From: Eledone cirrhosa
Taxonomy: Eukaryota
Direction of reading: 5' to 3'
NCBI GenBank assembly: GCA_964016885.1
Contig: OZ024740.1
Coordinates: 168,020,001-168,084,000 of the forward strand
Length of the DNA: 64,000 nucleotides
Shown here: piece by piece, positions 14,284-61,787 of the stretch
Layout of the letters: the number at the start of each line of letters is the position of its first letter
How positions within the stretch are numbered: the first letter of the stretch is position 1
Translations under genes and position numbers: made by a program
The notes under the pieces: generated by a model
Told to the model about the DNA's origin: nothing
What the model saw: the letters and a program-made list of their open reading frames with translations, nothing else
Database searches by the model: none

Positions 14284-14368
14284 GGTGACGCGCGTTTCGC
14301 CACTGATCAGCTCAAGGTTCCATCTGTATCGATCTGACCTGACTCTGTAATCCGCGGCTCGTCAGACC
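14284..14368 (-). ncRNA. Type I hammerhead with extended stem II (mirror copy)
   Basis: GGT-CTGACGA-GCCGC-...-GTGGC-GAAACGCGCGTC-ACC. Confidence 0.75.
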
Positions 14369-14412
14369 CCATGTAATGTTAATGGAACATTTTTTCCATT
14401 AACATTACAAGG

Positions 14413-14497
14413 CGTCTGACGAGCCGCGGATTACAGAGTCGGGTCAGATCGATATAGATCGAACCTTGAGCTGATCAGTGGCGAAACGCGTGTCACG
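14413..14497 (+). ncRNA. Type I hammerhead with extended stem II
   Basis: CGT-CTGACGA-GCCGC-(50 nt)-GTGGC-GAAAC-GCGT-GTC-ACG; full core consensus. Confidence 0.75.
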
Positions 14498-14546
14498 AAC
14501 CAATAAACGTAATGAAGGAGTAACCAATCGTCCTTGTTATCTTATT

Positions 14547-14667
<121 letters not shown>

Positions 14668-17622: not shown

Positions 17623-17698
<76 letters not shown>

Positions 17699-17701
<3 letters not shown>

Positions 17702-20700
17702 TTTCTTTATTAACCACAAGGGTTTACATAAAGTAGACATTAAGGAGAGTGCAGGACAATGCAGGACGGTACAAATGGGCATTTCTGCGTGTAAAAAAAA
17801 AAAAAAAACAGAGGATGTAACAAAAATAACATTGAAAATAACAATGAAAAATTCCCCAATAGGGGGGAGACTTCGGAGGGACATTTGTGGAGAAAGCCCA
17901 GTAAAAAGCCACAATGACCCTGACCACCAAGGCAAGTGCCCTCTCCCAGTTTTCCACCTTTAGTTTACAGATATATACTCAGACTCAGAGTCGGCCCATT
18001 CACTCGGGCCATTCTTGCTTCTCTCACCCATCTTTCAACAAAATGCTGGGAAGAGAGCACTTCCTTCTCTACTCTGATTTTCCTTTTCAAATGAAATTTG
18101 AAAAAGTCAATCAGAGCATCACCGAAGAGGTAAGTGCTCGTCTTCAGCCCTTTCAAACGTGTCCACCATACTATCTCTTTCGCCATGGCCACCAGACAGA
18201 TAAAAACTGCCTGCCCTTCCCGGCTAAAGGAGGAGGGCGGGGCAATCCTCACGATAGACTCAGATGATAGCTGGATCCGTCCTAAACGCGACAGCAGGTG
18301 TTCGACATAAACCCACAAGTCAGCAATTTTCGGACACTCGACGAGTGCGTGCAGGACGGTTTCGTCGCCCTGCGCGCATCTCGGACATGCCCGGCTGACG
18401 GCACCTCCATGCCTGTAGAGTTTATCCCGAACTGGCAAGGCTCCTCGGTAGCACTGCCAGGCCAGAGATTTCTGGAAGTTGTCCATAGGCCCTGGCCCGA
18501 AAGTTCTTCCGAAGAGATTGGCTAGTTGATTTTCGTCGACGCCTAGAGTTTCCCCAAGTACGTCGTCGCTCTTCCCCTCCACTAATCCTCTATAGAACGC
18601 CGAGGTGGAGTTTCCACCGATCACATTGCCCGATTGGTCGAGGGCTGTGAGCGCCTGAAGACATTCCAGTCTCCAGGCGCTCCCTCTCGGTCTTCGCTTG
18701 ACCCAGGACTGCAGCTCCGTCAAGGAAACGAGCTGGGGAAAAACGCGTCTAGCAAACGGCGACCACACCTGATCACCGTCGAGGAAGAGGTGGAGATGTC
18801 GTAGCCTGAGCGCGTGCCTGCGCATCATCAGCCACGGCATGCCCAGCCCTCCACGTAGCGGGTGTTGACAACAGATGGACCGCCTGACCATCGGAGCACG
18901 TCCCTTCCACAAAAAGCGAAAGAGCAAACGCTCCAGCGCAGTCAGGCCAGGCTTAGGACAAGGTACGACGGTTAGGCGGTAGCAGATGACAGACACGATG
19001 TACGCGTTAGCCACCTCCGCTCGACCTTTCAGGGATAGCTTCCTCTCCGCCCATTTCTGGGTGAGAGAAGCCACCCTGCTCGTCACCTCGTCCCAGTTTT
19101 TGTCCGTCTGGAGGTCCGGACCGAACCAGACCCCTAGCAATTTAACCGGTCCGTCCGTCCAGCGCCCGACGACGCTGTTGGACGGCATGGACCTGCCTCT
19201 CCAGGTGCCGAGCTGCAGGCCCACTGACTTTTCCTGGTTGATCATTGCTCCTGTCACCGCTTCGTATTCTCTTAGTGTAGTGCCGATCGCCTCGATGTGT
19301 TTGGCGTTCGACACCACTACGGTGACATCGTCCGCATATGCTGACACGGATCTTCCGCATCCTAGTTCGCGCGGGACTCCCCTCAACGTCTCCAGTTTGT
19401 GCAGTAATGGCTCGAGAGTCAATACGTACAAGAGGGACGAGAGGGGACATCCTTGGCGGACCGAGCGCATGATGTTGAACGGTTCCGACAGGTGACCGTT
19501 CACTCTCACCACAGAGCAGATGTCGCTGTGCATGGCAGCGATCCAGCCTCTGAAGACGGGCCCAAAGCCAGCCGCCCTCAGGACTGCCGCTAGGTAACGA
19601 TGGTCGACCCTATCGAAAGCTTTCGACTGATCTAAATTGATCAAGGACCCACCCGTGCCAGGTTCCCTAGCTACCCTCTCTACGATGTATCGCATGAGGT
19701 GGAAGTTGTCGTGGATGGATCTGTCGGGAATGGCGCATGTCTGTGCCTCTCCCACCAGACCACCAACGACAAGCGCCAACCTCTTTGCTAGCACCTTGGC
19801 CAAAATCTTGAACTCTGTGTTTAGCAGAGTTATGGGCCTAAAATTATCTATGTTATCCCCCTTGTTCGGATCCTTTCTCAGCAGTGCCACCGCTCCTCGG
19901 CTCACAGAACTGGGAATTCTCCCATTCTGTTGCCAGTTGCAGTAGACGTCCGCCAAGAGGCCTCCGAACAAGTCTGGCATCTGTACGTAAAGTTCATAGG
20001 GCAGACCATCCAAACCAGGCGATTTACCCCTTGTGCAGCCAGTCATTGCCTCCCGTACTTCAGCGGCTGTTATCGGCTTTTCGCAACACTTCGCCTCAGT
20101 GGCCGAGAGCCGCGGCAGTCCGTCGAGGTAGACACTAAAGTCCATCCCTCTACCCGGCCCCCCGCTGCCCCCGAACAGCTGAGCGAAGTGTCGCTGAAAA
20201 GCTTCACACATTTGCCCGGGATCGAGTAGCATGCGCCCGTCGTGGTCCACCAAAGACCGGATCGTGGCTTTGTTGCCACGACGCGCCTCCGCCACTCGGG
20301 CCCATTGAACGGCTTTCGTCCCCTCGTGTCTGAGAGCACGCACCCTAGCTCTGACAACGCAGCCTTCGTGCTTTGCATTGAAGAATTGGTCAAGGGCCAA
20401 TTTCGCCGCAAGCACGTCGGTCGCAATGCCTTTGCTAAGCGCCTCGTCTAATTTTCTAACTAGTTCTCCCTCTGCTCTATTTTTCTCTATTGCTAAAGCC
20501 TTACTAAACCTAATCGATTCTATTCTAATCGCTCTTTTCAGAGCAAACCACCACTTGTTGTTGACGATGGCCCCCGTCAACGCCCGCTTAACTAGTTCGC
20601 TAATCCGGTCTCTGTAGGCCTTGCGCGCTGGTAAGGACGCGTTTAGCTTCCAGTAGCCGAGTCCTCGTCTATGAAGTCTATCTAAGTCAAGCACACAGGT

Positions 20701-21297
20701 CACGAATTTGTGGTCCGTGTATCTGACTATCTTGAATTGTGGACAGCCTATGCTAGACCTATCTATTTCCCTACAAAATACTCTATCTAGATATGATCTG
20801 GATGAGCCTATGCGGTTTGTCCAAGTCCACATTGGCACATTCGGGAAATCCAATCGGTGCCTGTCAGACAGTTCAAAACGCCTGAGCAGGTTGGTGAGGC
20901 TCTTGCACCCTCCACCCCTATCCGCTAATCCCACACAGTCCCAGCGTGCATCTAAGATCCCGTTCCAGTCGCCCACTAACACTAAAGAGCGGGACGTTCC
21001 AAGAAAGGTCTCCAGACGCCGGAAGAAATCAGGCCACCCTGCTCCTGTCGGGGCATAGACGGCCACTAGCCTGAAAGCTTGCCCGTCTCCGCTGGTCACG
21101 TCCAGCACCACCAGCTTACCCTCTGGGTCCAGGAAGATGGCCCGTATGGCGAGATCCAAACCTCTCCGAAAAAGCACAGCAACTCCTCCACCCGATCCAG
21201 GACGGCTGGGAGATGCGTACACATCGTAGCCGCCGAAGATCGGTGCGAAGGCCCGTGCTTCGGAGATTCTGGTCTCGCTGATGGCCACTACATCTAT
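17699..21297 (-). mobile_element. Tx1/L1-clade LINE copy A (ORF2 + 3' UTR)
   Basis: 3' end ...GGTTAATAAAGAAATCA runs directly into (TTA)n; 5' side joins copy B's 3' UTR at 21297/21298. Confidence 0.92.
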
Positions 21298-21309
21298 CCA
21301 GTTTTCCAC
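17965..21309 (-). CDS. Tx1-like ORF2: APE endonuclease-RT-CCHC finger, open but missing ~30 N-terminal aa
   Basis: ISETR, GGGVAVLF, VYAP, GDWN, YLDRVF, TDH, YWKLN, KSPGLDG, FRPITLLN, LDQSKAFDRV, RQGCPLS, YADD, CPRC..ETVLHALVEC; 1114 aa with no stop. Confidence 0.9.
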   Translation of the reverse strand: MENWIDVVAISETRISEARAFAPIFGGYDVYASPSRPGSGGGVAVLFRRGLDLAIRAIFLDPEGKLVVLDVTSGDGQAFRLVAVYAPTGAGWPDFFRRLETFLGTSRSLVLVGDWNGILDARWDCVGLADRGGGCKSLTNLLRRFELSDRHRLDFPNVPMWTWTNRIGSSRSYLDRVFCREIDRSSIGCPQFKIVRYTDHKFVTCVLDLDRLHRRGLGYWKLNASLPARKAYRDRISELVKRALTGAIVNNKWWFALKRAIRIESIRFSKALAIEKNRAEGELVRKLDEALSKGIATDVLAAKLALDQFFNAKHEGCVVRARVRALRHEGTKAVQWARVAEARRGNKATIRSLVDHDGRMLLDPGQMCEAFQRHFAQLFGGSGGPGRGMDFSVYLDGLPRLSATEAKCCEKPITAAEVREAMTGCTRGKSPGLDGLPYELYVQMPDLFGGLLADVYCNWQQNGRIPSSVSRGAVALLRKDPNKGDNIDNFRPITLLNTEFKILAKVLAKRLALVVGGLVGEAQTCAIPDRSIHDNFHLMRYIVERVAREPGTGGSLINLDQSKAFDRVDHRYLAAVLRAAGFGPVFRGWIAAMHSDICSVVRVNGHLSEPFNIMRSVRQGCPLSSLLYVLTLEPLLHKLETLRGVPRELGCGRSVSAYADDVTVVVSNAKHIEAIGTTLREYEAVTGAMINQEKSVGLQLGTWRGRSMPSNSVVGRWTDGPVKLLGVWFGPDLQTDKNWDEVTSRVASLTQKWAERKLSLKGRAEVANAYIVSVICYRLTVVPCPKPGLTALERLLFRFLWKGRAPMVRRSICCQHPLRGGLGMPWLMMRRHALRLRHLHLFLDGDQVWSPFARRVFPQLVSLTELQSWVKRRPRGSAWRLECLQALTALDQSGNVIGGNSTSAFYRGLVEGKSDDVLGETLGVDENQLANLFGRTFGPGPMDNFQKSLAWQCYRGALPVRDKLYRHGGAVSRACPRCAQGDETVLHALVECPKIADLWVYVEHLLSRLGRIQLSSESIVRIAPPSSFSREGQAVFICLVAMAKEIVWWTRLKGLKTSTYLFGDALIDFFKFHLKRKIRVEKEVLSSQHFVERWVREARMARVNGPTLSLSIYL

Positions 21310-24300
21310 CTTTAATTTACAGATATATACTCAGAGTAGGCCCATTCACTCGGGCCATTCTTGCTTCTCTCACCCATCTTTCAACAAAATGCTGGGAAGA
21401 GAGCACTTCCCTCTCTACTCTGATTTTCCTTTTCAAATGAAATTTGAAAAAGTCAGTCAGAGCATCACCGAAGAGGTAAGTGCTCGTCTTCAGCCCTTTC
21501 AAACGTGTCCACCATACTATCTCTTTCGCCATGGCCACCAGACAGATAAAAACTGCCTGCCCTTCCCGGCTAAAGGAGGAGGGCGGGGCAATCCTCACGA
21601 TGGACTCAGATGATAGCCGGATCCGTCCTAAACGCGACAGCAGGTGTTCGACATAAACCAACAAGTCAGCAATTTTCGGACACTGGACGAGTGCGTGCTG
21701 GACGGTTTCGTCGCCCTGCGCGCATCTCGGACATACCCGGCTGACGGCACCTCCATGTCTGTAGAGTTTATCCCGAACTGGCAAGGCTCCTCGGTAGCAC
21801 TGCCAGGCCAGAGATTTCTGGAAGTTGTCCATAGGCCCCGGCCCGAAAGTTCTTCCGAAGAGATTGGCTAGTTGATTTTCGTCGACGCCTAGAGTTTCCC
21901 CAATTACGTCGTCGCTCTTCCCCTCCACTAATCCTCTATAGAACGCCGAGGTGGAGTTTCCACCGATCACATTGCCCGATTGGTCGAGGGCTGTGAGCGC
22001 CTGAAGACATTCCAGTCTCCAGGCGCTCCCTCTCGGTCTTCGCTTGACCCAGGACTGCAGCTCCGTCAAGGAAACGAGCTGGGGAAATATGTGTCTAGCA
22101 AACGGCGCCCACACCTGATCAACGTCGAGGAAGAGGTGGAGATGTCGTAGCATGAGCGCGTGCCTGCGCATCATCAGCCACGGCATGCCCAGCCCTCCAC
22201 GTAGCGGGTGTTGACAACAGATGGACCGCCTGACCATCGGAGCGCGTCCCTTCCACAAAAAGCGAAAGAGCAAACGCTCCAGCGCAGTCAGGCGAGGCTT
22301 AGGACAAGGTACGACGGTCAGGCGGTAGCAGATGACAGACGCGATGTACGCGTTAGCCACCTCCACTCGACCTTTCAGGGATAGCTTCCTCTCCGCCCAT
22401 TTCTGGGTGAGAGAAGCCACCCTGCTCGTCACCTCGTCCCAGTTTTTGTCCGTCTGGAGGTCCGGACCGAACCAGACCCCTAGCAATTTAACCGGTCCGT
22501 CCAGCGTCCGACGACGCTGTTGGACGGCATGGACCTGCCTCTCCAGGTGCCGAGCTGCAGGCCCACTGACTTTTCCTGGTTGATCATTGCTCCGGTCACC
22601 GCTTCGTATTCTCTTAGTGTAGTGCCGATCACCTAGATGTGTTTGGCGTTCGACACCACTACGGTGACATCGTCCGCGTATGCTGACACGGATCTTCCGC
22701 ATCCCAGTTCGCGCGGGACGCCCCTCAACGTCTCCAGTTTGTGCAGTAATGATATCTATGTTATCCCCCTTGTTCGGATCCTTTCTCAGCAGTGCCACCG
22801 CTCCTCGGCTCACAGAACTGGGAATTCTCCCGTTCTGTTGCCAGTTGCAGTAGACATCCGCAAAGAGGCCTCCGAACAAGCCTGGCATCTGTACGTAAAG
22901 TTCATAGGGCAGACCATCCAAACCAGGCGATTTACCCCTTGTGCAGCCAGTCATTGCCTCCCTTACTTCAGCGGCTGTTATCGGCTTTTCGCAACACTCG
23001 GTCTCAGTGGCCGAGAGCTGCGGCAGTCCGTCGAGGTAGACACTAAAGTCCATCCCTCGATCTGGCCCACCGCTGCCCCCAAACAGCTGAGCGAAGTGTC
23101 GCTGAAAAGCTTCACACATTTTCCAGGGATCGAGTAGCATGCGCCCGTCGTGGTTCACCAAAGACCGGATCGTGGCTTTGTTGCCACGACGCGCCTCCGC
23201 CACTCGGGCCCATTGAACGGCTTTCGACCCCTCGTGTCTGAGAGCACGCACCCTTGCTCTGACAACGCAGCCTTCGTGCTTTGCATTGAAGAATTGGTCA
23301 AGGGCCAATTTCGCCGCAAGCACGTCGGACGCAATGCCTTTGCTAAGCGCCTCGTCTAATTTTCTAACTAGTTCTCCCTCTGCTCTATTTTTCTCTATTG
23401 CTAAAGCCTCACTAAACCTAATGGATTCTATTCTAATCGCTCTTTTCAGAGCAAACCACCACTTGTTGTTGACGATGGCCCCCGTCAACGCCCGCTTAAC
23501 TAGTTCGCTAATCCGGTCTCTGTAGGCCTTGCGCGCTGGTAAGGACGCGTTTAGCTTCCAGTAGCCGGGTCCTCGTCTATGAAGCCTATCTAAGTCAAGC
23601 ACACAGATCACGAATTTGTGGTCCGTGTATCTGACTATCTTGAATTGTGGACAGCCTATGCTAGACCTATCTATTTCCCTACAAAATACTCTATCTAGAT
23701 ATGATCTGGATGACCCTATGCGATTTCTCCAAGTCCACATTGGCACATTCGGAAATCCAATCGGTGCCTGTCAGACAGTTCAAAACGCCTGAGCAGGTTG
23801 GTGAGGCTCTTGCACCCTCCACCCCTATCCGCTAATCCCACACAGTCCCAGCGTGCATCTAAGATCCCGTTCCAGTCGCCCACTAACACTAAAGAGCGGG
23901 ACGTTCCAAGAAAGGTCTCCAGACGCCGGAAGAAATCAGGCCGCCTGGTCCTGTCGGGGCATAGACGGCCACTAGTCTGAAAGCTTGCCCGTCTCCGCTG
24001 GTCACGTCCAACACCACCAGCTTACCCTCTGGGTCCAGGAAGATGGCCCGTATGGCGAGATCCAAACCTCTCCGAAAAAGCACAGCAACTCCTCCCCCCG
24101 ATCCAGGACGGCTGGGAGATGCGTACACATCGTAGCCGCCGAAGATCGGTGCGAAGGCCCATGCTTCGGAGATTCTGGTCTCGCTGATGGCCACTACATC
24201 TATGTTTAGTGACCTGAGGTCGTTGAGCAGCTGGCCCTGCTTCCATGACGACCCCAAGCCACGCGCATTTATGCTGCCTATTCTGAGTGAGGTCATGTTT

Positions 24301-26650
24301 AAAATAGAGTGGAAAAGATGGGAAAGACCACTTACCGTACTTTTCGTAGAGGAGGGATGGTTTTTACATCCCTTTTCACTTGATCGTCTGGTGAAGGGAC
24401 CGTTGAATCGTCCCTTCGGCTGGTCGTCGGCTCTTCTATGAGTATGTCTGAATATACTCTTCGATTGATAGTTCCTCCTAGGTCCCTGAAATCACCAACT
24501 GCGTTGGGGAATTTCGTTTTAATGTTTGTGTATTGTTTCTGTACTATTTTTAGCAGTCTTATGTTAGTTGGCGTTTTGATTGGTGCTGGTATTATGTAGT
24601 CGTGTTGTGAAATGTCTGTGTGTTCAATTATGTAAGTCATTAGTTTCTTGTTGTGTGTATTTATTGCCGTGCATTTGTTTTTCTGGGGGTGGAGTGTGGT
24701 TCTGCTATTTTCTTGTCGTTGTTGCTGGGTGTGTGTGTTTTGTTGTTGTGTTTGCGATGTTGGTGCTTGTGGTGGTGGTGTTGAAGGTGTTGTTGGCGGT
24801 GGGGTTTTTGCCGGTGGTGATGGTGGTGCTAGTGTGGATGGTGATGGTGTTGGTGGTGTTGCTGCTGTGAGTCTCTTTGCAGTAGACTTTACCCTTTTCT
24901 CATTTCTTTCCTCCCTTTTCAAAGGCGACGATGCGCTGCTTCTGCGTTTGTGCCTTCTTACGACCTTTTGCCATCCCTCTCCCACCTCACACTCCATGTC
25001 TGATTCTGTGAGGTCGGGGAGGGGTACCAGCTCCACTCTTTCACTTGTTGTTGTTGGTGATGTTTGCACTGGAGTCTCTGTTGCAGCTGCATTTGGTATT
25101 GCTGTTGTTGTTGTTAATATTTCCACTGCTGCTGCTGTTTTTGATTTCCGTGGCGTGGGTATAGGTGCGACGGACCTATCGGTCATGGTTGCCGCTTGTC
25201 CTGTTGCTGGTAGCCGTGGAGCCGGTTTCGGAAGGAGGGGGGTTTTCTCCTTTCTCAGGGTCTTCTCGTTGCAGAAGGCCCTGAGGTGAGTCTTCGATCC
25301 ACAGCGAAAGCATTTCGGGCGTTTGCCCTCAACACTTATGGGCAGTTGAGTGCCGTTATCGAAGTCTATCACATCCGGGATAGCTTCGATGCACTCCTGG
25401 TTGGTTTGGATTAGCATCTCAATGGAGGTGCCGACCCAATCTTCTCTTACTTTTTTCTGTACTTGCAGTACAGTTGTTTTGTCCTCGATTCCGACGAGGA
25501 CAGACGCGGCCAGCCAAGAAGGGGTCATCCCGGGGGGGACGTGGGTCAGTTTGACCCTCACAATTTTTTGCCCGCAGTAGGAGGGCACCAACACCATCTC
25601 CTCGCTCCTTAGGGTCACTACGGATTGAGCCTTTGCCTCCTGGGGTGTGGCAAAAAGTACGTCTACGGTGGCATATTTTTTGCCTCGGGTGATGTGCGTT
25701 TTCCGCTGCCACACAGACCGCAAGGCTTTTTGTATTTGAGCCTCTGTGGCTCTTTCAACCCTACGGGATTTTGTACTTACTGTACGGTACGTGACCGTAC
25801 AGTGCTGTTGGGTTTCGAAAAATGTTTCCGCTGCCTTGCAGATTGCTCGGTGTCCAGTCTTTGTCACCATCTTCTTCGCTTCCTCTAATTCCTCATTTGT
25901 TATGAGGATTGTTTCCAGGTTTTTCGCAATACCTGCAAATGAGATTATTTTTTCTTTGCTGCTGTTGTTGTTGTTGTCGTCAGAGCTGCTGTTACTTTTG
26001 TTGTTGCTGCAGGTACTACGACTACTGCCTCCGCCGCTGTTGCTGTGGTTGTTGTTGGTGTTGCTGCTGCTAATACTGTTGTTGTTTATGCTGCTGGTGA
26101 TGCTGTTGCGGCTGCTACTGTTGTTTTCATTGTCACTGTTGCTGTTGTTATTACGGCTGCTACTGCTATTATTCCTGACGTCAGACGAATGAAATGGGTT
26201 TTCGTATTTCCCGCACACCTGTTTCGTCGTTGTCGTCGTCGTCGTGGAGAAATCTTGCACGCTTTGCACGAGACTTTTCTTTTTTGTCGTCGCTTGCGAA
26301 AGAGAAGGGAGGGAGAGAGACACATTTAAAGAAGGGAGGGAGAGAGACAATCTTCTCTCTGCTGTAGTGATGATTGAGGAAGAAGAAGACGGAATGAGTG
26401 GGAGTGACCTATGAAAATTCTTTTTCGTAGCCATGTTGTTTTTTTTGTTTAAAATAAATAGTGGGCACAAAACCCCAATAAGCAGTTATTTAACCCCGAA
26501 GGGCCAAATAACGGGCAGAAAGACCCCTCTCACGAGGAGGAGGGTGTTTTTGTCTACAAGTTCGTTAAAGTTTTAAACAATTTACAATTGTTATAGCGTT
26601 CAAAATTTACAATACCTTACAGAGCCGAGCCTCCGTCAACCATAGCATTC
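21298..26650 (-). mobile_element. Tx1-like LINE copy B (5' UTR, ORF1, disrupted ORF2)
   Basis: 5' end abuts (AAT)n at ~26651. ORF2 starts at 24296 (MTSLRIGSINARGL), has frameshifts near 23945 and 23750, and a ~435-bp RT deletion at ~22751. Confidence 0.92.
24332..26433 (-). CDS. Tx1-like ORF1 (gag-like, CCHC knuckle), intact
   Basis: Open frame, likely start MATKKNF at 26433; Asn/Ser-rich N-terminus, globular core, CFRCGSKTHLRAFC knuckle, Pro/Thr linker, conserved C-terminal block. Confidence 0.85.
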
Positions 26651-26680
26651 AATAATAATAATTAATAATAATAATAATAA

Positions 26681-26866
26681 TGTTTCCAGGGATGGTTAAA
26701 GAAAATTGGCCCCTTCACGCTTTTTGGAACGCTTCAAATGGCATGCTTGCTGGGAACAGCAAGAACCCTCCGATACGTCCTGAATATCTGAGGCTGCAGG
26801 TCGTAGCTTGATATTCATTTCAACAAACTTTCCAGTTAACTAACATCAATGACTGAGACTCAAAGA
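26681..26866 (+). mobile_element. R4/Dong-like LINE family a, short 3' fragment
   Basis: Matches 28883-29067 (LGTARTLRYVLNI* plus 3' UTR); (AAT)n on both sides. Confidence 0.9.
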
Positions 26867-26901
26867 GTAATAACAATAATAATAATAATAATAATAAATA
26901 T

Positions 26902-29067
26902 AACATCCCTCCACCCGAAACTGACAACCATGTTCAATGACTGCTTGATATCAGGTGAGGTACCAGAGTGGTTGACAAAAGGTACCACAGTTCTGGTAAT
27001 GAAAGGCCGAATCAAGGGTAATGATGTTACTAACTATAGACCTATCACATGTCTGTCCGTAATGTGGAAACTGTTGACAAGCATTATGTCTGAGGAAATC
27101 TACCATCACCTCCACACAAACAACTTGTTACCGGACGAACAGAAAGGATGCCGAAAGAAGTCCCGTGGTACAAAGCACCAGTTACTTATTGATAAGATAG
27201 TAATGAGGAATTGCAAGAGGAGACACACTGGTCTTGACATGGCATGGATAGACTACAAAAAGGCATTTGACATGGTGCCTCATTCTTGGATCACCAAAAG
27301 CCTAGAGATCTTCAAGGTGGCAGATAACATCAGACAGTTGTTGGGCAAAAGTGTGAAGTCCTGGAAAACAGAGCTAACATCAGCTGGAGAATCCTTGGGA
27401 GGCGTGAAGATCAAGAGAGGTATCTTCCAGGGAGATAGTCTGTCCCCTCTGTTGTTTGTCCTTGCCCTGATGCCCCTGACCATTATACTGCGAAAAGTGA
27501 GAGCAGGATACAAGTTGGAAAAGGGAGAGCTTACGATCAATCACCTCCTCTTCATGGACGATCTTAAGCTCTTCGGGAAGAGTGAGAAGGAGTTGGATGT
27601 GCTTGTTGACACTGTCCGTATTTTCAGCAATGATATATGTATACAATTTGGTATTAGTAAGTGTGGAGTCCTTGTGATGAAGAGGGGTAAATTGAGCAGA
27701 AGCAACGGATTTCAGGTACCAACAGGTGAGATGATAAAGGAAATTGACACTGAAGAAGGATACAAGTATTTGGGTGTTCTGGAGGCTGATGACATCAAGA
27801 ACAAAAAAAATGAAGGAATTGATAAGATCTGAATACATTCGGAGAGTAAGGAGCGTATTAAAGTCACATCTGAACAGTAGGAATGCCATAAGTGCAGTAA
27901 ATTCCCGAGCTGTGTCTATTATTAGGTACAGTGCGGGAATTCTGAGATGGAATGTTGCTGAACAAAAAGAAATGGAGAGGAAGTCTAGGAAGCTATTGAC
28001 TATCTACAACATGTTCCACAAGAGGAGTGATGTCGATAGACTCTACTTAAGGAGATCTGAAGGTGGAAGGGGTCTTATCATCATAGAGGACTGTGTTCAG
28101 ATGGAGAAAAACAACCTCCACAAATACGTGACTGATAGTAAGGAGCCAATGCTCAGAATTGTACTGAAGGAGAGGACAATAGACCAGGGGATGTCCAAGG
28201 AGGAAATAACAACAAGGAGAAAGAGCAGCCTTCATGATAAATCTCTTCATAGTACCTTCTTTGAGAAAACTGAATTCAGAGATCCACAGACATGGAACTG
28301 GTTGAAAAGAGGAGACCTTAAAAAGGCTACAGAAGGAATGCTAATGGCTGCGCAAGAGCAGGCCCTCAAAACGAAGTGGTTGAAATACCATATTTACAAG
28401 GAGGAGGCTAGCCCACTGTGCAGGATCTGTGGAGAGAGAGAGGAGACTGTGGCTCACCTTTTATCCGAGTGTAAACACCTAGCTCAGACTCACTATAAGG
28501 GCTGGAGACATGATGTGATGGGCAGGGTGATCCACTGGCACCTATGCAAAGTAAACAATTTACCACATTCTGAGAAGTGGTATGAGTATAAGCCAGAGTC
28601 GGTGATAGAAAACGATCAGGTGAAGGTGCTGTGGGATTTTAGGATACAGACGGACAAGAAACTGGAACACAATAGACCTGACCACGTGGTTTTGGACAAG
28701 GAAAGAAGATCGTGCCTGATTGTGGATGTGACCTGACCATTCGACACGAGCGTGCAAGAGAAGAAGAGGGAGAAAATTAACCGATAACAGGACTTAAAGT
28801 GGGAGGTAAAAAGGATTTGGAACTGCCATGAAGTCAAAGTGGTCCCGATTGTCATAGGCGCAATAGGTACTATCTCAAAGAGTTTCCAAGGATAGTTAAA
28901 GAAGATTAGTCCAATCCCGCTTTTTGGAACACTTCAAAAGGCATGCTTGCAGGGAACAGCAAGAACACTCCGATACGTCCTGAATATCTGAGGCTGCAGG
29001 TAGCGACTTGATATTCATTTCAACAAACTTTCCAGTTAAATAACACCAATGACTGAGTCTCAAAGAA
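26902..29067 (+). mobile_element. R4/Dong-like LINE family a, 5'-truncated RT-ZnF-RLE pseudogene
   Basis: NYRPITCL, WIDYKKAFDMVPH, RGIFQGDSLSP, HLLFMDD, YKYLG, GGRGL, CRIC..ETVAHLLSEC, RHD, RPD..V..VDV; frameshift at ~27810 and stops; (AAT)n both sides. Confidence 0.92.
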
Positions 29068-29086
29068 AATAATAATAATAATAATT

Positions 29087-32000
29087 AAGAAACGGGAAGG
29101 TGGCGGTATCACTAGACAAGGGAGAGGCTAGCAAAAGATATATATAGACCGACTTAGTGACTCGGTCAAACGTCAGCGATTATGGCACTGCTGGGTCCCC
29201 CCTTCTCCACCAACAATAGAAAAAGCCCCAGCACCACCACCGACATAGCCAACAACAATAACAGGCAACTTCAGCAAGAAGTATATTATATTATTAATAA
29301 TAATTTCATTCTTAAGCCACGCAATGCTCACATTAAGGAACCACTCATGATAATAACAATTTAAAAAGCAACAAAACAGAAAACCCCGTGACCAAGAAAT
29401 ACCGGGATGGCAGCCGGCGGGGAATAGCCGTGTCTCTAGGGGAGGACGACCCCTCTAGTCTTGGTTGACACTCGTCCTAGAAATGGTAACACGAAATGAT
29501 TACCCCTTGGCGGTTAAGGATAAAACGCGACAAAATAAAGTAAATGTCAAATGATAAAATCTCATACCGGATCGGCCGTCACCCGGGTCAAAAAGTGCCG
29601 CGTTCCCCAGAGAGGAACCAGACTGGGGTCGAAAAATCAGCTAATGGTTCAAACCTCCCCATCACTTCGGAGCTGGAGACCTCCCATAACCGGAATACTC
29701 CTACTGTTGGCCTTCCATGCTCACCACCAAGAAATCCAAAGAAAAAGAGAGAAAAATGGTCAAGGGAAGACAATAAAGAAGTCCTTGAGGATTTCTACAC
29801 TGCCATGTACTACCCATCAAATATATCGAATACAGAACAGACATATATCAACTGGAAAAAGGGAACATCCCGAAAACAGAGGCTATATTGACAGTAACAA
29901 ACTAGCCAATATACGAAGAAATATTGTTAAAAAAAAGTTACTAACTGATATAGAAATTGATCAGATCAAGCTATTAGCACAGAGTCAGCGAAGGGAAAAT
30001 GAAACATGTGTCAGTGAAAACGAGGTAAATTGTAACACTTCGAATCCCAGGGTTGGGGCGGAATCACTGACAACAGAACAAATTAAAGAAAGGATCTAAA
30101 AAGTGGAGGGAGTGCATGCTCAAGATGAAACTCAAAATGAAAACAATGAGATCGTAAATGATAAAGAAATGAATGAGAATGAACTTGCCAACTTGAAGGA
30201 TGAAATTATGATCGAATGGATGAAAATGAAAGAATCTGACATGGGGGAACGAGACACCCTCCCTAAGATCCAGAACTCCAAACAGAACCAAAAGATAATA
30301 CGCAAGACTAACATAATTCTCAAAAACATTATCATCACAAACAAACGAAACATTACTGATTTAAATCCTCTCTAGTATGCATCGGCTAAAGTCACCACTC
30401 ACTTATGTGGAGTGAAAATGAAAAAACAAAGGAATTCCTACAAGAAATCTACTTGGCAAGAGAACATCAATCGCCAAATAAACCTTCTCCGGTCTGACAT
30501 AGAAATGTTAACAAACTACAAAGTAGGTGAACATGTTAAACAAACTAAACTTAGAAAATACAGTATAAAATCAACAAGTGACATAGATATGCTGATAGAA
30601 ATAATCAAGCAAAAAGTGTCGGCCAAAGCTGCTCGTATAAGGCGCTTTGAAAAACGATCTAGATTCTATAAGGACAATAATATGTTCAAAAACAACCAAA
30701 GAAACTTCTACAGAAAAATTGGCAAGTCAACAATAACTGCTAAATCAATACCACCCAAGGAGGAAATGCAAGAATTCTGGGAAAAGATCTGGGCAGAAGA
30801 AAAAGTTCATAAAGTTCATTCCATGGATAGACAGACAAATGAAAGATACAGCTCACCTTGAGGAACAAATATGGGACAATATAACAGTTGAACTGTTGCG
30901 TTTGGCTCTTAGAAAAACCAGCAAATGGAAATCCCCAGGAAAAGACAACATACAAAATTTTTGGATAAATGCCTTCACAGAGTCTCATGAGCTGTTAGCC
31001 CAACTTTACAATGAAATAGTTAAGGAGCCAGAAAAGATACCATCATGGCTAGTTAACGACATTACATTCCTGCTTCCGAAGAATGATGAGACAAACAATC
31101 CCAAAAATTACAGACCGATAACTTGCTTGACCACAATGTATAACATTTTAACATCAGTCCTAACTGAATATACATATGACCACCTGATAACAAATGACCT
31201 ATTTCCCAATGAGCAGAAAGTGTGTAAACGAGTCTCATATGGCTGTAAGGATCAGCTTTTGGTTAACAAAATGATACTGGAAGATTGTCATAATAGACAC
31301 AAAAATCTATCAATTGCTTGGATAGATTATAAAAAAGCATTCGATAGTTTGCCACACAGTTGGATTGAAAAATGTTTAGAGATTTTCAAAATATCTCCCG
31401 TTGTCAGGAGGTTCTTCTCATTCAGTATGAAGACATGGAAAACGACACTCCTTTTGAATAGTGAAACAAAATTAATTGTGGAATTTTTCAGGGTGACTCT
31501 TTATCGCCGCTTTTATTCTGCATCGCATTTATACCATTAAGTAAAATGCTCAATGAAACAAAACATGGATATAAAGTCTATGACAAAACCATTAATCACT
31601 TGTTCTACATGGATGACCTGAAACTATTTGCAAAAAATGATGAACAATTACAAGGGCTATTATCCACTGTGGATCAGTTCAGTAATGACATTAAAATGGA
31701 GTTTGGACTAGATAAATGCGCCAAAGCAACGTTCACCAGAGGAAAGCTGCTGAAAAGTTCAGACATTAATCTTGATCGGGGGAATGTGATAAGAGAAGTT
31801 GATCAAGAGGAAACTTACAAATATCTAGGTGTTTATGAAGGAGACGGAATCAAGCACTCGACAATGAGGGAAAGGATAAGGAAGGAATGTTACCGCAGAG
31901 TAAGAGCAATCCTAAGAAAGGAATTGAATGCAAAAAATAGGATCGATGCCATAAACACGCTTGCCATACCAGTAGTAACCTACAGTTACAATGTCATCAA

Positions 32001-33240
32001 CTGGTCAAGCACAGAGATCCGTACGCTCGATACAAAAATTCGAAAATTCTTAACCATGCACAGAATGCATCACCCTAAGGTAGATACAGATAGAATATAT
32101 CTCCCTAGGAAAGAAGGAGGACGTGGGTTAATCCAGTTAGATATTGCGTTGAAAACTGCAACAATTGAATTATCTACATATCTAAGGGAATCACATGATT
32201 GGATGATCAAACTCGTTTTGAAACACAAAAGCATCAAAAGATCATACTCCATTACAAAAGATGCACAAAGATACAGTAATGGACTACAAATTTCAGAAGT
32301 CCCATTTACTGCTGAAATTGAAAACACAGAAAAAGCAAAGCAGTAAAAGTAACTGCAAAGAAAGAACTGCTACAGAAACTGACTAAGAAATGGCAAGAAA
32401 AGCCTCTGTATGGAAAATACCCAGAAAGAGCTAACAATCCTGATGTTGACAAAACTTTAACCCATCAGTGGTTGGCATCCTCTGGACTGAAATCGGAGAC
32501 TGAAGGACTGATTATATCAGCACAAGATCAGTGTCTGCCAACAAAAAATTACCAAGCCAACATAATAAAAAATGGATGCAGCCCATTATGCCGTGTATGT
32601 AAAAAACAACCAGAGACCATTGATCATATAATTTCAATGTGCAGTCCTATAGCTCCAACCGAATACCTAAACAGGCATGACAGAGCTGCACAATAAATAC
32701 ATTGGATAATGTGTAAGCATTTTGACCTGCCCCATCAAAAGAATTGGTGGGAGCATCAACCACCTCCCATACTTGAAAAAGATCACATCTCAATCTTGTG
32801 GAACTTTAGCATCCAAACAGACCGAAAACTAGATGCAAATAGACCTGATATAACACTGAAGGACTTTAAAAAGAGGGTATGCCTGCTAATTGATATGTCT
32901 GTTCCAACAGACAAGAATGTATCTATAAAAACATTTGAAAAATTGAGCAAGTATAAGGACCTGGAGATAGAAATTGGAAAAATGTGGAAATTGAGAACTA
33001 AAACAATACCAGTGGTTGTAGGCGCTCTAGGAATGATACCTAAGGGGTCTAATGATTACTTATCGCAAATCCCAGGAAACGCGCGTATAGGAGAAATACA
33101 AAAGATAGTACTAATGGGAACTGCCCATATACTAAGGAAAATTCTGTCAATATAAGTACATCACAAGTCTAAACACCTAAAGATGCATGCGTGTGTATGT
33201 ATGTTCTTTCCTGAACATGGCGGACCTTGTCTCTTGAGGT
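29087..33240 (+). mobile_element. R4/Dong-like LINE family b, near full length, decayed
   Basis: ~450-bp 5' UTR; N-terminal KWSREDNKEVLEDFY; RT (KSPGKD, NYRPITCL, WIDYKKAFDS, HLFYMDD); CRVC..H..C finger; RHD; RPDI..LIDMSVP..EKLSKY. Split over ORFs 29544-33155. Confidence 0.9.
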
Positions 33241-34183
33241 CACAAATACGTGACTGATAGTAAGGAGCCAATGCTCAGAATTGTACTGAAGGAGAGGACA
33301 ATAGGCCAGGGGATGTCCAAGGAGGAAATAACAACGAGGAGAAAGAGCAGCCTTCATTAAAAATCCCTTCATAGTACCTTCTTTGAGAAAACTGAGATCC
33401 ACAGACATGGAACTGGTTGAAAAGAGGAGACCTTAAAAAGGCTACAGAAGGAATGCTAATGGCTGCGCAAGAGCAGGCCATCAAAATGAAGTGGCTGAAA
33501 CACCATATTTACAAGGAGGAGGCTAGCCCACTGTGCAGGATCTGTGGAGAGAGAGAGGAGACTGTGGCTCACATTGTATGTGAGTGTAAACACCTAGCCC
33601 AGACTCACTATAAAGGCTGGAGACATGATGTGATGGGCAGGGTGATCCACTGGGACCTATGCAAAGTAAACAATTTACCACATTCTGAGAAGTGGTATGA
33701 GCAAAAGCCAAAGTCGGTGATAGAAAACGATCAGGTGAAGGTGCTGTGGGATTTTAGGATACAGACGGACAAGAAACTGGAACACAATAGACCTGACCTG
33801 GTGGTTTTGGACAAGGAAAAGAGATCGTGCTTGATTGTGGATGTGGCCTGCCCATTCGACACGAGAGTGCAAGAGAAGGAGAGGGAGAAAATTAACCGAT
33901 ACCAGGACTTAAAGTGGGAGTTAAAAAGGATTTGGAATTGCCTTGAAGTCAAATTGGTCCCGATTGTCATAGGTGCATTAGGTACTGTCTCAAAAAGTTT
34001 CCAGGGATGGTTAAAGAAAACTGGCCCCGTCCCACTTTTTGGAACACTTCAAAAGGCATGGTTGCTGGGAACAGCAAGAACCCTCCGATACGTCCTGAAT
34101 ATCTGAGGCTGCAGGTAGTGGCTTGATATTCATTTCAACAAACTTTCCAGTTAACTAACATCAATGACTGAGACTCAAAGAAC
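33241..34183 (+). mobile_element. R4/Dong-like family a 3' segment (ZnF + RLE open, 33417-34106) fused to family b 3' UTR
   Basis: Similarity to the 26902 copy begins abruptly at 33241 (equivalent to 28119); ends in (AAT)n. Confidence 0.9.
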
Positions 34184-34276
<93 letters not shown>

Positions 34277-34320
34277 AAGAAGAAGAAGAAGAAGAAGAAG
34301 AAGAAGAAGAAGAAGAAGAA
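34184..34320. repeat. Compound (AAT)n(GAA)n between tail-to-tail Dong-like and Tx1-like elements
   Basis: Direct reading. Confidence 0.95.
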
Positions 34321-36604
34321 TGTTTTCTTTATTAACCACAAGGGTTCACATAAAGTAGATATTAAGGACAGTACAGGACAATACAGGACGGTACAAATGG
34401 GCATTTCTGCGTGTAAAAAAACAGAGGTTGAAATAAAATAACAAAGAAAAATTCCCCAATAGGGGGGAGACTTCCGAGGGACATTTGTGGAGAAAGCCCA
34501 TTAAAAGACCACAGTGGCCCTGACCACCAGGGCAAGTGCCCTCTCCCAGTTTTCCACCTTTAATTTACAGACACATACTCAGAGAAGGCCCATTCATTCG
34601 GGCCATACTTGCTTCTCTCGCCCATCTTTCAACAAAATGCTGGGAAGAGAGCACTTCCCTCTCTACCCTGATTTTCCTTTTCAAATAAAATTTGAAAAAG
34701 TTAATCAGGGCATCACCAAAGAGGTAAGTGCTCGTCTTCAGCCCTTTCAAACGTGTCCACCATACTATCTCTTTCGCCATGGCCACCAGACAGATAAAAA
34801 CTGCCTGCCCTTCCAGGCTAAAGGAAGGGGGCGGGGCAATCCTCACGATGGACTCAGCTGATAGCTGGATAGGTCCTACACGTGACAGCAGGTGTTCGAC
34901 ATAAACCCACAAGTCAGCAATGCTCGGACACTGGACGAGTGCGTGCAGGACGGTTTCGTCGCCCTGCACGCATCTCGGACATGCCCGGCTGACGGCACCT
35001 CCATGCCTGTAGAGTTTATCCCGAACTGGCAAAGCTCCTCGGTTGCACTGCCAGGCCAGGGATTTCTGGAAGTTGTCCATAGGCCCCGGCCCGAAAGTCA
35101 TTCCGAAGAGATTGGCTAGTTGATTTTCGTCGACGCCTAGAGTTTCTCCAAGTACGTCGTCGCTCTTCCCCTCCACTAATCCCCTATAGAACGCCAAGGT
35201 GGAGTTTCCACCGATCACATTGCCCGATTGGTCGAGGGCTGTGAGCGCCTGAAGACATTCAAGTCTCCAAGCGCTCCCTCTCGGTCTTCGCTTGACCCAG
35301 GACTGCAGCTCCGTCACGGAGACGAGCTGGGGAAAAACGCGTCTAGCAAACGGCGACCACACCTGATCACCGTCGAGGAAGAGGTGGAGATGTCGTAGCC
35401 TGAGCGCGTGTCTGCGCATCATCAGCCACGGCATGCCCAGCCCTCCACGTAGCGGGTGTTGACAGCAGATGGACCGCCTGATCATCGGAGCGCGTCCCTT
35501 CCACAAGAAGCGAAAGAGCAAACGCTCCAGCGCAGTCAGGCGGGGCTTAGGACAAGGTACGACGGTCAGGCGGTAGTAGATGACGGATGCGATGTACGCA
35601 TTCGCCACCTCCGCTCGACCTTTCAGGGATAGCTTCCTCTCGGCCCATTTCTGGGTGAGAGAAGCCACCCTGCTCGTCACCTCGTCCCAGTTTTTGTCCG
35701 TCTGGAGGTCTGGACCGAACCAGACCCCTAGCAATTTAACCGGTCCGTCCGTCCAGCGCCCGACGACGCTGTTGGACGGCATGGACCTGCCTCTCCAGGT
35801 GCCGAGCTGCAGGCCCACTGACTTTTCCTGGTTGATCATTGCTCCTGTCACCGCTTCGTATTCTCTTAGTGTAGTGCCGATCGCCTCGATGTGTTTGGCG
35901 TTCGACACCACTACGGTGACATCGTCGGCATATGCTGACACGGATCTTCCGCATCCTAGTTCGCGCGGGACCCCCCTCAACGTCTCCAGTTTGTGCAGTA
36001 ATGGCTCGAGAGTCAATACGTACAAGAGGGACGAGAGGGGACATCCTTGGCGGACCGAGCGCATGATGTTGAACGGTTCCGAAAGGTGACCGTTCACTCT
36101 CACTACAGAGCAGATGTCGCTGTGCATGGCAGCGATCCAGCCTCTGAAGACGGGCCCAAAGCCAGCCGCCCTCAGGACTGCCGCTAGGTAACGATGGTCG
36201 ACCCTATCGAAGGCTTTCGACTGATCTAAATTGATCAAAGACCCACCCGTGCCAGGTTCCCTAGCTACCCTCTCTACGATGTATCGCATGAGGTGGAAGT
36301 TGTCGTGGATGGATCTGTCGGGAATGGCGCATGTCTGTGCCTCTCCCACCAGACCACCAACGACAAGCGCCAACCTCTTTGCTAGCACCTTGGCCAAAAT
36401 CTTGAACTCTGTGTTTAGCAGAGTTATGGGCCTAAAATTATCTATGTTATCCCCCTTGTTCGGATCCTTTCTCAGCAGCGCCACCGCTCCTCGGCTCACA
36501 GAGCTGGGAAATCTCCCGTTCTGTTGCCAGTTGCAGTAGACGTCCGCCAAGAGGCCTCCGAACAAGTTTGGCATTTGTACGTAAAGTTCATAGGGCAGAC
36601 CACC
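34321..36604 (-). mobile_element. Tx1-like LINE copy C, 5'-truncated, RT-to-end frame open (34565-36600)
   Basis: Near-identical to copy A from GLPYELY onward; 5' end in (AAT)n, 3' end in (TTC)n/(TTA)n. Confidence 0.92.
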
Positions 36605-36651
36605 AAATAATAATAATAATAATGATGTCAAATCAAAACTATAATAATAAT

Positions 36652-36845
36652 AATTGTTTCTAATTTTGGCACAAGGCCAGCAATTAACCAGTGCATTACT
36701 GGTACTTTATTTTATCGACCCCGTGAGGACGTGAGGATGAAAAGTAAAGTTAACCTCGGCGGGATTTGAACTCAGAATGGCTAGTGCCGCAACTCTATGC
36801 GTCAAAGCATGGCGTCCGACCCTCTACCGATACTGTCAATCCACT
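36652..36845 (-). mobile_element. tRNA-SINE with (ATT)n tail
   Basis: Reverse complement of the 9121 family. Confidence 0.85.
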
Positions 36846-37144
36846 AATAATAATGATAAGCAACAAGTTGAAAAAATTATAGAACAGAACACAGACAAAA
36901 ACAAATGCAACAACAAAAACAAATTTCAAAAGTTTTGAACGCAACAACCCCTACTTCCGTCGTAGCTAAAATCAAAAACAGCAGCAACAACAACACTAGG
37001 AACCGATGTTACTGGCCTTGAAAAACGAAAAACGTAAAGGAAAAAAAACATACAAAAAAACTAAGTCAGACATTCCAACATTACAATGAAACTTATGTTT
37101 ATTTTTTTAGTTTTTATCTATTTATTTGTTTATTTATTATTATT

Positions 37145-38511
37145 CGTCTACAGCGTGATGGTGCCACCGGGGTGATGAAATCACCGGTGGTTATGTAACC
37201 ATACATTCACCGATCCTCGATAAAAGTGTTTAAATGTCGAACCTAAACAGTTCGAATAACGGTGAAGAGGAGACTGGAACGTCATGTGACAGACTCTCAC
37301 CCAGCAAGTGCTCCCTGGCCCAGCAGCAGGGACCTGGCTGTCATCCAAATACTGCTGGTGTTGGAGGAAGGAGAAGAAGGAAAGGGATAAGAACCAACTG
37401 GACGAAAGAATTGAATAGAACTGTCATGGAATGTTACCTGAAGAGTAACCCCAAGGAAAAAGGCTATAGGAAACGGATGCATAACATCTGGAACGAGATT
37501 GGTCTATTTAAATTAGATGAACAAAAATTGGCCGAGCAGGCTCGAGTAATAAGAACTAATGGATGGATATGTGATTGACAGTAGGGAGCTAATGCTCAAA
37601 ATTGTACTGAAGGAGAAGACAATAGACCAGGGGATGTCCAAGGAGGAAATAACAACAAGGAGGAAGAGCAACCTTCATAAAAAATCCCTTCATAGTACCT
37701 TCTTTGAGAAAACTGAATTTAGAGATCCACAGACATGGAATTGATTAAAAAGAGGAGAGCTTTAAAAGGCTGCAGAAGGAATGCTAATGGCTGCGCAAGA
37801 GCAAGCCCTCAGAACGAAGTGGGTGAAACACCATATTGACAAGGAGGAGGCTAGCTCACTGTGTAGGATCTGTGGAGAGAGAGAGGAGACTGTGGCTCAC
37901 ATTGTATCCGAGTGTAAACACCTAGCCTAGACTCACTATAAAGGCTGGAGACATGATGTGATGGGCAGGGTGATCCACTGGCACCTATGCAAAGTAAACA
38001 ATGTACCGCATTCTGAGAAGTGGTATGAGCATAAGCCTGAGTCGGTGATAGAAAACGATCAGGTGAAGGTGCTATGAGATTTTAGGATACAGGCGGACAA
38101 GAAATTAGAACACAATAGGCCTGACCTGGTAGTTTTGGACAAGGAAAAAAGATCGTGCCTGATTATAGATGTAGCCTGCCCATTTGAAACGAGAGTGCAA
38201 TAAAGGGAGAGGGAGAAAATTAACCGATACCAGGACTTAAAGTGGGAGGTAAAAAGGATTTGGAACTGCCATGAAGTCAGAGTCGTCCCGATTGTCATAG
38301 GCGCACTAGGTACTATCTCAAAGAGTTTCCAAGGATGGTTAAAGAAAATTGGTCCCGCCCCACTTTTTGGAACACTTCAAAAGGCATGCTTGCTGGGAAC
38401 AGCAAGAACCCTCCGATACGTCCTGAACATCTGAGGTTGCAGGTAGCGGCTTGATATTCATTTCAACAAACTTTCCAGTTAAATAACATCAATGTCTGAA
38501 ACTCAAAGAGC
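37145..38511 (+). mobile_element. R4/Dong-like copy lacking RT: N-terminus joined to family a 3' segment
   Basis: ORF 37234-37578 has the Dong-like N-terminal motif RTNWTKELNRTVMECY...GYRKRMHNIW. From 37567 the sequence matches family a position 28124 onward, with stops. 5' hairpin CCACCGG..TGAT/ATCACCGGTGG. Confidence 0.85.
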
Positions 38512-38753
38512 AATAATGGTTTCTTTATTTAATTTATTATTGTTTATTATTCATTCATTTATTTATCTATTTATTATTTATCTATTTATTTATTTTATTT
38601 ATTTTAATGATAATACAAGGACGATTTGTTGTGCCTTCATTAAGTTTATTGATTGGTAAGTTGACGGGCGTTTCGCTATTAATTAGCTGAAGTTTCGATC
38701 TGTATCATTATGGCTCGACTCTCTGGATATAGATATATATACGTATGTGTGTG

Positions 38754-40943: not shown

Positions 40944-41459
40944 TAGTGGCTTATAGAGGTAGATTAACTAATAAGTAGAGCAATATTTTTCAACACGGCC
41001 ACATGGGTAAGAAATTTGCTTCATATTAATAAGGTACGGAGTTCGAATCCACTGCGAAGAAGGTTGGGGCAACTGTCATTTACCATAAGCTATAGTCGAC
41101 ACATGTCATGTGAATGAATTCGGGTTGAGGAAAATTGTTCGAAAGCCTACCCGATGGACTATACCTGTAATACAAAGGACCGGGTTTGGGAACGTATGTC
41201 GGTGTTTATATTATAGCAGCTGTTTTGGACTCCACAGTCTTCGCTTTTTATCACTTCTTACTATCCAATTTTATATTTTTATATATCTTTCTCTTATTTT
41301 TTTATTGTCTCCAAATCTCAATTGATTTACCTATTCTATAACATCCCTCCTCTATTTTCTCCAGAACCCTTTTTCGCCTACTTCCTCTGGCCTACTTTCA
41401 TATACAATCCTTAGAATTTGCTGTATAGATTTCACTTTCATAGAATATATATATATATA

Positions 41460-41827
41460 TACGATATTAAATAAATGGAAACTATATTTATAAAACCATA
41501 TTTATTTCATTATATATATTTCAGGGATATCATATTAAAAATATGTTATGCCTTCTTCAGACAAAATACAATATAAACAGTCTTATAAATAGATAGATTC
41601 GACATATATATCTATTTATAAGACTGTTTATATTGTATTTTGTCTGAAGAAGGCATAACATATTTTTAATATGATATCCCTGAAATATATATAATGAAAT
41701 AAATATGGTTTTATAAATATAGTTTCCATTTATTTAATATCGTAAATATACTCCAAATACTTGTTGAGTGCTTTTATATCAGTTATAAATATTTACTCGT
41801 TGTAACCCAACAATTTAAATAAAACTT

Positions 41828-49821: not shown

Positions 49822-49954
49822 TTGTTTCTACTTTAGGCACAAGGCCAGCAATTACCCAGTGCATTACTGGTACTTTATTTTATCGACCTCGTAAGGATGA
49901 AAGGCAAAGTAAACCTCGGCGGGATTTACTTTGCCTTTCATCCTTACGAGGTCG

Positions 49955-49988: not shown

Positions 49989-49991
<3 letters not shown>

Positions 49992-55672: not shown

Positions 55673-55674
<2 letters not shown>

Positions 55675-61597: not shown

Positions 61598-61787
61598 TTG
61601 TTTCTACTTTAGGCACAAGGCCAGGAATTTGAAGGGAAGGGGAAAGTTGATTAAATCGACCCCAGTGCATTACTGGTACTTTATTTTATCGACCTCGTAG
61701 GGATGAAAGGTAAAGTTAACCTCGGCGGGATATGAACTCAGAACGCAAAGGGCCGTAACTCTCTGCCACGTTGAATGGTGTCCGACG
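61598..61787 (-). mobile_element. tRNA-SINE (longer variant) whose (ATT)n tail abuts the Tx1 copy D 5' end
   Basis: Same core and tail as 9121, plus an extra GAAGGGAAGGGGAAAGTTGATTAAATCGACC segment. Confidence 0.85.

Follow-up and report, generated by a model that had tools for sequence, protein, structure and literature searches.

In the genome of the octopod Eledone cirrhosa, a stretch of 64,000 nucleotides (contig OZ024740.1, positions 168,020,001 to 168,084,000 of the forward strand; here called the window) carries two arrays of retroelements set in AAT microsatellites. The arrays very probably combine Tx1-type long interspersed elements (LINEs) with an apurinic/apyrimidinic-type endonuclease (APE) on the (ATT)n strand, unrelated Dong-like LINEs with a restriction-like endonuclease (RLE) on the (AAT)n strand, and a short interspersed element (SINE) that likely depends on Tx1 enzymes. 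Insertion into the microsatellites was likely by target-primed reverse transcription. (ATT)n is a new target repeat for the known Tx1 clade, a variation on the microsatellite-targeting LINEs already known. The likely tail-sharing SINE is the more surprising part of the finding.

Tx1-type elements in ATT repeats

Three Tx1-type families, A, B and C, occur in the window. The original prediction, made from the letters of the window alone, placed Tx1-like 5′ ends in a fixed ATT/G register on the (ATT)n strand, and these are seen at 26650, 55610 and 61568. It gave the 3′ ends as AATAAA..C/ATT without poly-A, and at 17700, 34321, 49990 and 55674 they read AATAAA(G/TG)AAA.C/ATT, again without poly-A. 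The register holds when junctions are collected genome-wide. By exact pattern counts, ATTATTATT precedes 775 of 818 family A 5′ ends in register (94.7%), and 8,080 of 9,314 exact A/C 3′ ends are followed by ATTATT, without poly-A. In the background, taken from 40 evenly spaced 10-kb stretches, at least three in-frame ATT among the five preceding triplets occur at no more than 0.09% of 798,800 positions. Queries holding element sequence only, with no flank, matched 30 loci for family A and 30 for family B; (ATT)n/G is present at almost all of them, and their outer flanks differ. In a pooled sample of full-length A, B and C copies, 94 of 98 5′ junctions are ATT-flanked and the remaining four are ATT-adjacent variants. 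Both in the family A counts and in the sample, then, most copies do not have the non-repeat 5′ flanks expected if ATT were only a tail of the element. Restriction-site-associated DNA (RAD) reads from three other samples have an (ATT)10 consensus before the family B head (193, 177 and 223 reads; agreement 0.85-0.92), counts that may include duplicates and come from samples whose species match to the window is not established.

It might be argued that ATT is merely encoded at both ends of elements that insert nearly at random, and that the arrays arose via later insertions, recombination or selective retention. We consider this very unlikely. None of 69 Tx1-type full-length ends lies in the opposite phase, and not one of the 98 full-length copies begins in an AT or AC run, although these are far commoner than AAT runs in a 400-kb sample (239 and 51 against 21). 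The 5′-truncated copies are unable to carry a 5′ leader, so those that start at ATT point to the repeat as a target and not just a tail. Among truncated copies with identity of at least 84%, the 3′ end present and no interruption, 12 of 25 and 14 of 27 in two overlapping sets start at ATT, against a background of 0.47%. These filtered sets replaced a first tally (8 of 53) affected by divergent families, internal deletions and alignment ends. The truncated copy at locus L330 has a duplication of 16-17 nt, ATTATTGTTGTTGGTG(T), which starts with ATTATT and includes non-repeat letters, and the duplication at L280 likewise begins with ATT. An automated duplication score for LINEs was dropped because it was confounded by the first G of the elements (mispaired control 0.42 for full-length and 0.12 for truncated copies).

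Several observations weigh against targeting, some of them by favoring an element-encoded ATT. Where the 3′ flank of a full-length copy leaves ATT within 15 nt, the departure is duplicated on the 5′ side in only 1 of 15 cases. The 5′ ATT run is therefore no faithful duplication; it may be partly element-carried or later reshaped, so the figure of 95% overstates targeting. About half of the truncated copies (13 of the 27) start without a clear ATT run, 6 of them directly fused to another LINE, and at least three (L113, L155 and L312) are truncated with neither ATT nor an obvious fusion. Fusions that lack AAT, together with internal duplications, show that recombination and deletion are frequent. 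Most sampled loci were picked by their likeness to window copies. At L222, reads from four runs did not cover the unique flanks and included no element-skipping joint, and no empty site was obtained.

A more systematic sample was drawn from 100 3′ ends on contig C1, of which 40 were taken by a fixed index rule and their junctions judged by eye. These comprised 27 full-length copies, all ATT-flanked, 11 truncated ones and 2 that could not be classified. The truncated ends gave 7 ATT junctions, 2 fusions to the Dong-like family D1, 1 junction after telomere-like repeats and 1 unexplained case. Full-length copies make up an unusually high share of this sample (27 of 40); deletions within elements and fusions between LINEs are also common. 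A truncated copy at L333 has telomere-like TAACCC repeats, not ATT, at its 5′ junction.

The elements are also clustered. Among the first 100 3′ ends on C1, 38 of 99 neighbor gaps are 15 kb or less, against 3.4 expected and a maximum of 10 in 2,000 simulations; 35 of these 38 close pairs are on the same strand, compared with 31 of 52 distant pairs. In 400 kb of evenly spaced genome sequence, 16 of 21 AAT runs of at least five units adjoin a Dong-like, Tx1-type or SINE match, and two of the stretches hold Dong-like arrays. The window is thus typical of the genome, and the suggestion that each insertion leaves targets for the next finds support in these adjoining runs and in the one-strand clustering.

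A Koshi-like CTT target was rejected: only 28 of the 9,314 A/C 3′ ends run into CTT repeats, ATTCTTCTT, against the 8,080 that run into ATT. Ends with one ATT followed by (CTT)n are present at 34247-34320 of the window and at L153, L210 and L338. A second short repeat family, ending ...ACACAATAATTTC(ATT)n, supplies further ATT targets (L078, L086, L119, L276). Families A and C have the ORF2 region in common (95%) but differ in the 5′ part, and at L349 an A/C body is joined to a B-like head; judged from these comparisons, 5′ modules have likely been swapped among the Tx1-type families.

Clade placement and use of opposite strands

Tx1-clade elements have a separate open reading frame 1 (ORF1) with a zinc knuckle and an RNA-binding region. 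In the ORF1 found here a CCHC motif is visible; the knuckle has no Pfam match, and Atlas leads to CCHC and ZCCHC3-RBD clusters (0.88-0.93), which we take as a lead only. The family A ORF2 has an N-terminal APE domain, a reverse transcriptase (RT) and a C-terminal zinc motif by Pfam, and its best PDB match is L1 ORF2p. One family A copy (L201:1501-7532) has an uninterrupted ORF2 frame of 1,204 aa, with APE motifs that align to the L1 endonuclease (EN). The nearest named ORF2 homolog is from Argonauta hians (68%).

A quick RT tree with 61 rows, built without bootstrap and with clade labels that are proxies and not curated references, places families A and B together with the Argonauta protein on a separate branch (99). 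This branch nests in a 42-row clade (SH-aLRT 98) with U2-associated, 5S-associated and TX1-named proteins, apart from plant L1, and a similar grouping appears in a second RT tree (support 92). Rfam found U2 snRNA in six and 5S rRNA in one of 20 metagenomic Tx1 relatives scanned, and two look tRNA-flanked by eye. Flanks of U2 snRNA, 5S rRNA or tRNA-like sequence occur on the metagenomic relatives L356, L358, L364, L362, L370 and L374; at L356, L357, L359 and L365 a U2 match also lies within or near the 5′ region. Keno is defined by insertion into U2 snRNA (PMC4494074), so the grouping with U2-associated elements supports Tx1 membership by proxy. The predicted Tx1 placement is supported, since in the RT tree the octopod families group with elements flanked by U2, 5S or, putatively, tRNA sequence. 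A preference for repetitive targets, itself a Tx1 trait, is seen in the 5′ ends and the truncated copies, and the proposal of an APE-type Tx1 lineage that targets (ATT)n, the repeat of Dong, is supported by ATT-flanked copies both full-length and truncated. No (ATT)n-flanked copy was found among 80 distant metagenomic relatives (24-42% identity), none of which falls in the octopod branch.

The closest known parallels are APE-RT LINEs of the Tx1 clade that insert in microsatellites: Koshi in (TTC)n, Kibi in (TC)n and crocodilian Tx1 in (TTCC/TTTC)n (PMC4494074, PMC3812793). The octopod families differ from Koshi and Kibi in using (ATT)n, and are set apart by target, not by sequence comparison. 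They resemble Keno in that U2-associated metagenomic elements fall in their 42-row clade of the quick tree, and differ from it in target and in forming their own branch, with a sister group at about 40% identity. Neither a Tx1 element that targets ATT nor a SINE with a Tx1 tail was found in the literature searched; Repbase lay outside the search and may already record such an element. The octopus repeat literature, in the portions available, gives counts for L1-Tx1 and Dong-R4 and not their targets. Further comparison literature includes PMC4640811, PMC8967140, PMC3747384, PMC5753468, PMC4824008 and PMC4758252.

The elements on the other strand belong to two families, D1 and D2, with RT, CCHC, RHD and PD..D..E.K motifs, AAT tails and no APE. 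Their truncated copies start after AAT in 65 of 89 cases and after ATT in none. TAA repeats are a reported Dong target in silkworm, mosquito and the snail (DongBg), and in O. vulgaris Dong-R4 is reported to outnumber every other recently active group of LINEs (PMC13282606). We infer the Dong-like label from structure, target and this reported activity; none of the 120 D1 homologs listed carries a clade name. The order of domains, the AAT tails and the truncations in AAT are what is expected of Dong, and nothing here is new.

The window confirms the claim that RT-RLE LINEs occupy the (AAT)n strand, and the use of one repeat from opposite strands extends well beyond it. Beside 555 runs of at least four ATT units, all from loci selected for these elements and not random, the element lies on the ATT strand or the other in the ratio 347:6 for Tx1-type, 12:186 for Dong-like and 128:4 for SINE copies.

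A SINE with a Tx1-like tail

The SINE is about 190 bp long and occupies 7,600 of 400,000 sampled bases (about 1.9%). Its head has motifs resembling A and B boxes, judged by eye, and we take it to be tRNA-like; Rfam gave no match. It may resemble MetaSINEs, in which a 66-bp Meta domain follows the head. The 3′ end consists of GGC-CTTGT-GCC followed by an A-rich segment, GAAA, two further bases and ATT. The LINE counterparts of this hairpin are ACC-CTTGT-GGT in A/C and GCC-CTTGT-GGC in B-like ends, so that one CTTGT loop is held by different stems: ACC/GGT in 72 and GCC/GGC in 35 LINE or other ends, and GGC/GCC in 157 of 194 SINE ends. Upstream of the 138 non-SINE hairpin ends, 118 have Tx1-type sequence, 9 a SINE match and 11 no reference match. 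The CTTGT hairpin is absent from the D1/D2 3′ ends inspected.

Informative duplications are present in 34 of 117 non-tandem full SINE copies, mostly 13-21 nt long, and 27 of them start with ATTAT (mispaired controls, 2 of 1,162; under a looser rule, 38 of 126 against 6 of 622). Their lengths overlap those at the LINE copies L330 and L339. A common tail whose stems differ by compensated changes is the mark of a SINE/LINE pair, and on these comparisons the SINE is likely a Tx1-dependent partner, mobilized by Tx1 enzymes.

A LINE of another clade (CR1, L2, RTE or I-type) might drive the SINE instead, the likeness to the Tx1 tail being due to chance or old template switching. The common tail is only about 25 nt long, reported mollusc SINE partners are, in the text available, CR1 and L2, and the 11 hairpin ends without a reference match leave room for such a driver. 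Two points count against the Tx1 partnership itself: SINE sites can be bare ATTAT or ATTAA, looser than the LINE target, and the LINE families compared for the hairpin were Tx1-type and D1/D2 only. Still, we think another driver unlikely, given one loop on three compensated stems with a common GAAA-NN-ATT end, the strand bias of the SINE, the overlap in duplication lengths, and the inspected D1/D2 3′ ends, which are without the hairpin.

A Tx1-dependent SINE would have two kinds of precedent. In crocodilians, SINEU is reported as probably moved by Tx1 LINEs (Tx1-Mar), judged from common targets, and tandem insertions there sandwich a duplication; SINEU has a poly-A tail, and no LINE was found with the SINEU-1 3′ end, whereas the octopod SINE has hairpin and ATT end in common with its LINE. 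Stringent pairs of the L2, CR1 and plant or algal L1-clade type likewise have a common 3′ stem-loop, compensatory changes and a short-repeat end. Only three of 58 surveyed SINE/LINE pairs have L1-clade tails, and the examples given there are from plants and a green alga (PMC3472496).

A ATTAAATT site in the family C ORF1 has been hit by the SINE at two loci, in the window (59624-59682) and at L340:2362-2541 (element-sense numbering). The SINE is truncated in one locus and full in the other, and the site may be a hot spot or reflect a shared ancestor.

Array layout, proposed mechanism and meaning

The window has two G+C-rich blocks, each flanked by AAT runs (Table 1). Pfam finds APE, RT and zf-RVT in its minus-strand reading frames and RT without APE on the plus strand, and its parts were assigned by mapping against natural element copies from other loci. 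Between 17.6 and 38.5 kb, family A comes first on the minus strand; D1, D1, D2 and D1 follow on the plus strand, and after them a truncated minus-strand Tx1-type copy, then a SINE and lastly a D1 with a deletion. Between 49.8 and 61.8 kb a SINE is followed by family B, by family C, which contains a SINE fragment, and by another SINE. The account of two LINE clades in each array fits the first and not the second, which has only Tx1-type elements and SINEs, and it had overlooked the SINEs altogether. AAT runs do separate many of the elements, as proposed, but four joints are AAT-free fusions by deletion or duplication (21297/8, 22751/5, 33240/2 and about 37570), and the AAT at 29296-29304 sits within the D2 5′ region and not between elements. 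In the segment 17700-26650, the part 21298-24203 is a second, partly deleted copy of 17946-21297; the segment is either a single full-length element that carries this internal duplication or a recombinant.

Table 1. Positions of array components in the window
Feature	Position	Strand	Remarks
(AAT)17 target/tail run	17649..17699		at family A 3′ end
Tx1-type LINE, family A	17700..26650	-	full 5′ end, internal duplication; 98% to natural copy at L201
ORF2 frame of family A	17965..21330	-	APE (PF03372), RT (PF00078), zf-RVT
ORF1 of family A	24332..26485	-	717 aa stop to stop; CX2CX4HX4C knuckle
AAT linker	26651..26681		at family A ATT/G 5′ junction
Two 5′-truncated RT-RLE (Dong-like) D1 copies	26679..26866 and 26898..29067	+	AAT between them
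AAT tail after second D1 copy	29068-29085		run of AAT
Dong-like D2, near full-length, decayed	29088..33240	+	last ~60 bp and tail gone; AAT-free fusion to D1
D1 3′ part	33242..34182	+	CCHC and RLE motifs
(AAT)21 then ~24 AAG units	34184..34320		tail-to-tail between D1 tail and Tx1-type 3′ end
5′-truncated Tx1-type copy	34321..36605	-	truncation point within (ATT)6
SINE	36655..36845	-	A/B-box-like head, 3′ GGC-CTTGT-GCC hairpin, ATT at either side
D1 5′ piece (putative assignment) and D1 3′ part	36855..38509	+	joined via internal deletion
SINE 3′ part	49823..49927	-	between AAT runs 49796-49822 and 49957-49989
Tx1-type family B	49990..55610	-	both ends present; ~76% to family A in ORF2
Tx1-type family C	55674..61568	-	both ends present; ORF2 region 95% to A, other 5′ part
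(AAT)21 and (AAT)10	55611-55673 and 61569-61598		either side of family C
SINE 3′ fragment inside family C	59624..59682	-	at ATTAAATT site; duplication ~19 nt
SINE	61599..61787	-	then short Tx1-like 3′ end at ~61805-61937

Outside the arrays, a broken RT fragment lies at 3897-5154, presumably Penelope-like from its appearance. Long inverted-repeat elements resembling MITEs occur at 8086-9054, 14229-14552, 41454-41750 and 42098-42462, several of them beside (AT)n runs.

The arrays could have grown as follows. The APE domain would nick the AAT strand, either where an ATT stretch lies or immediately ahead of it; ORF2 would recognize the 3′ hairpin with its CUUGU loop, and the (AUU)n end of the RNA would then pair with the freed primer. 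A second nick would fall about 15-18 nt downstream, and full-length copies would likely finish through ATT-repeat pairing, fixing the ATT/G register. The RLE elements would carry out the mirror reaction via their (AAU)n tails, and the SINE would be mobilized in trans by the Tx1 machinery. The repeat left at both sides of each insertion would serve Tx1-type, Dong-like and SINE copies alike as a fresh target.

It is possible, if somewhat doubtful, that the APE nicks A+T-rich DNA only loosely, and that specificity lies in the pairing of the (AUU)n tail with the primer and in a 5′ AUU leader. Such pairing would suit SINE targets as short as ATTAT or ATTAA and 5′ ATT runs that are perfect even beside imperfect 3′ flanks, and the opposite-strand rule would fall out of the two tail sequences. 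By itself it leaves unexplained how often LINEs adjoin long pre-existing tails, and the Xenopus Tx1L EN is reported to be sequence-specific in vitro (PMC1950540). Tail pairing is compatible with insertion into AAT microsatellites as we describe it, and differs only in the site of specificity.

We give about an even chance to a wider reading, in which an animal lineage of the Tx1/L1 group, stringent in recognizing its RNA via a 3′ hairpin, shifted to (ATT)n, drives one of several abundant octopod SINEs and, with the Dong-like elements on the opposite strand, makes most of the genome's long AAT microsatellites as a shared, self-renewing niche. On the Tx1 side, (ATT)n joins a list of targets that, in the papers available, comprises TC, TTC, TTCC and TTTC. 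The APE and RLE elements form a natural pair, each reading a different strand of one repeat, and this makes the contributions of endonuclease and RNA tail to specificity directly testable. If true, a SINE partner with a shared tail would be an uncommon case in the L1 group, and the Tx1 partnership would identify a driver for some of the octopod SINE load, for which the literature searched gives no partner LINEs. These arrays may also offer a mechanism for transposable element hotspots and for the origin of AAT microsatellites in octopod genomes.

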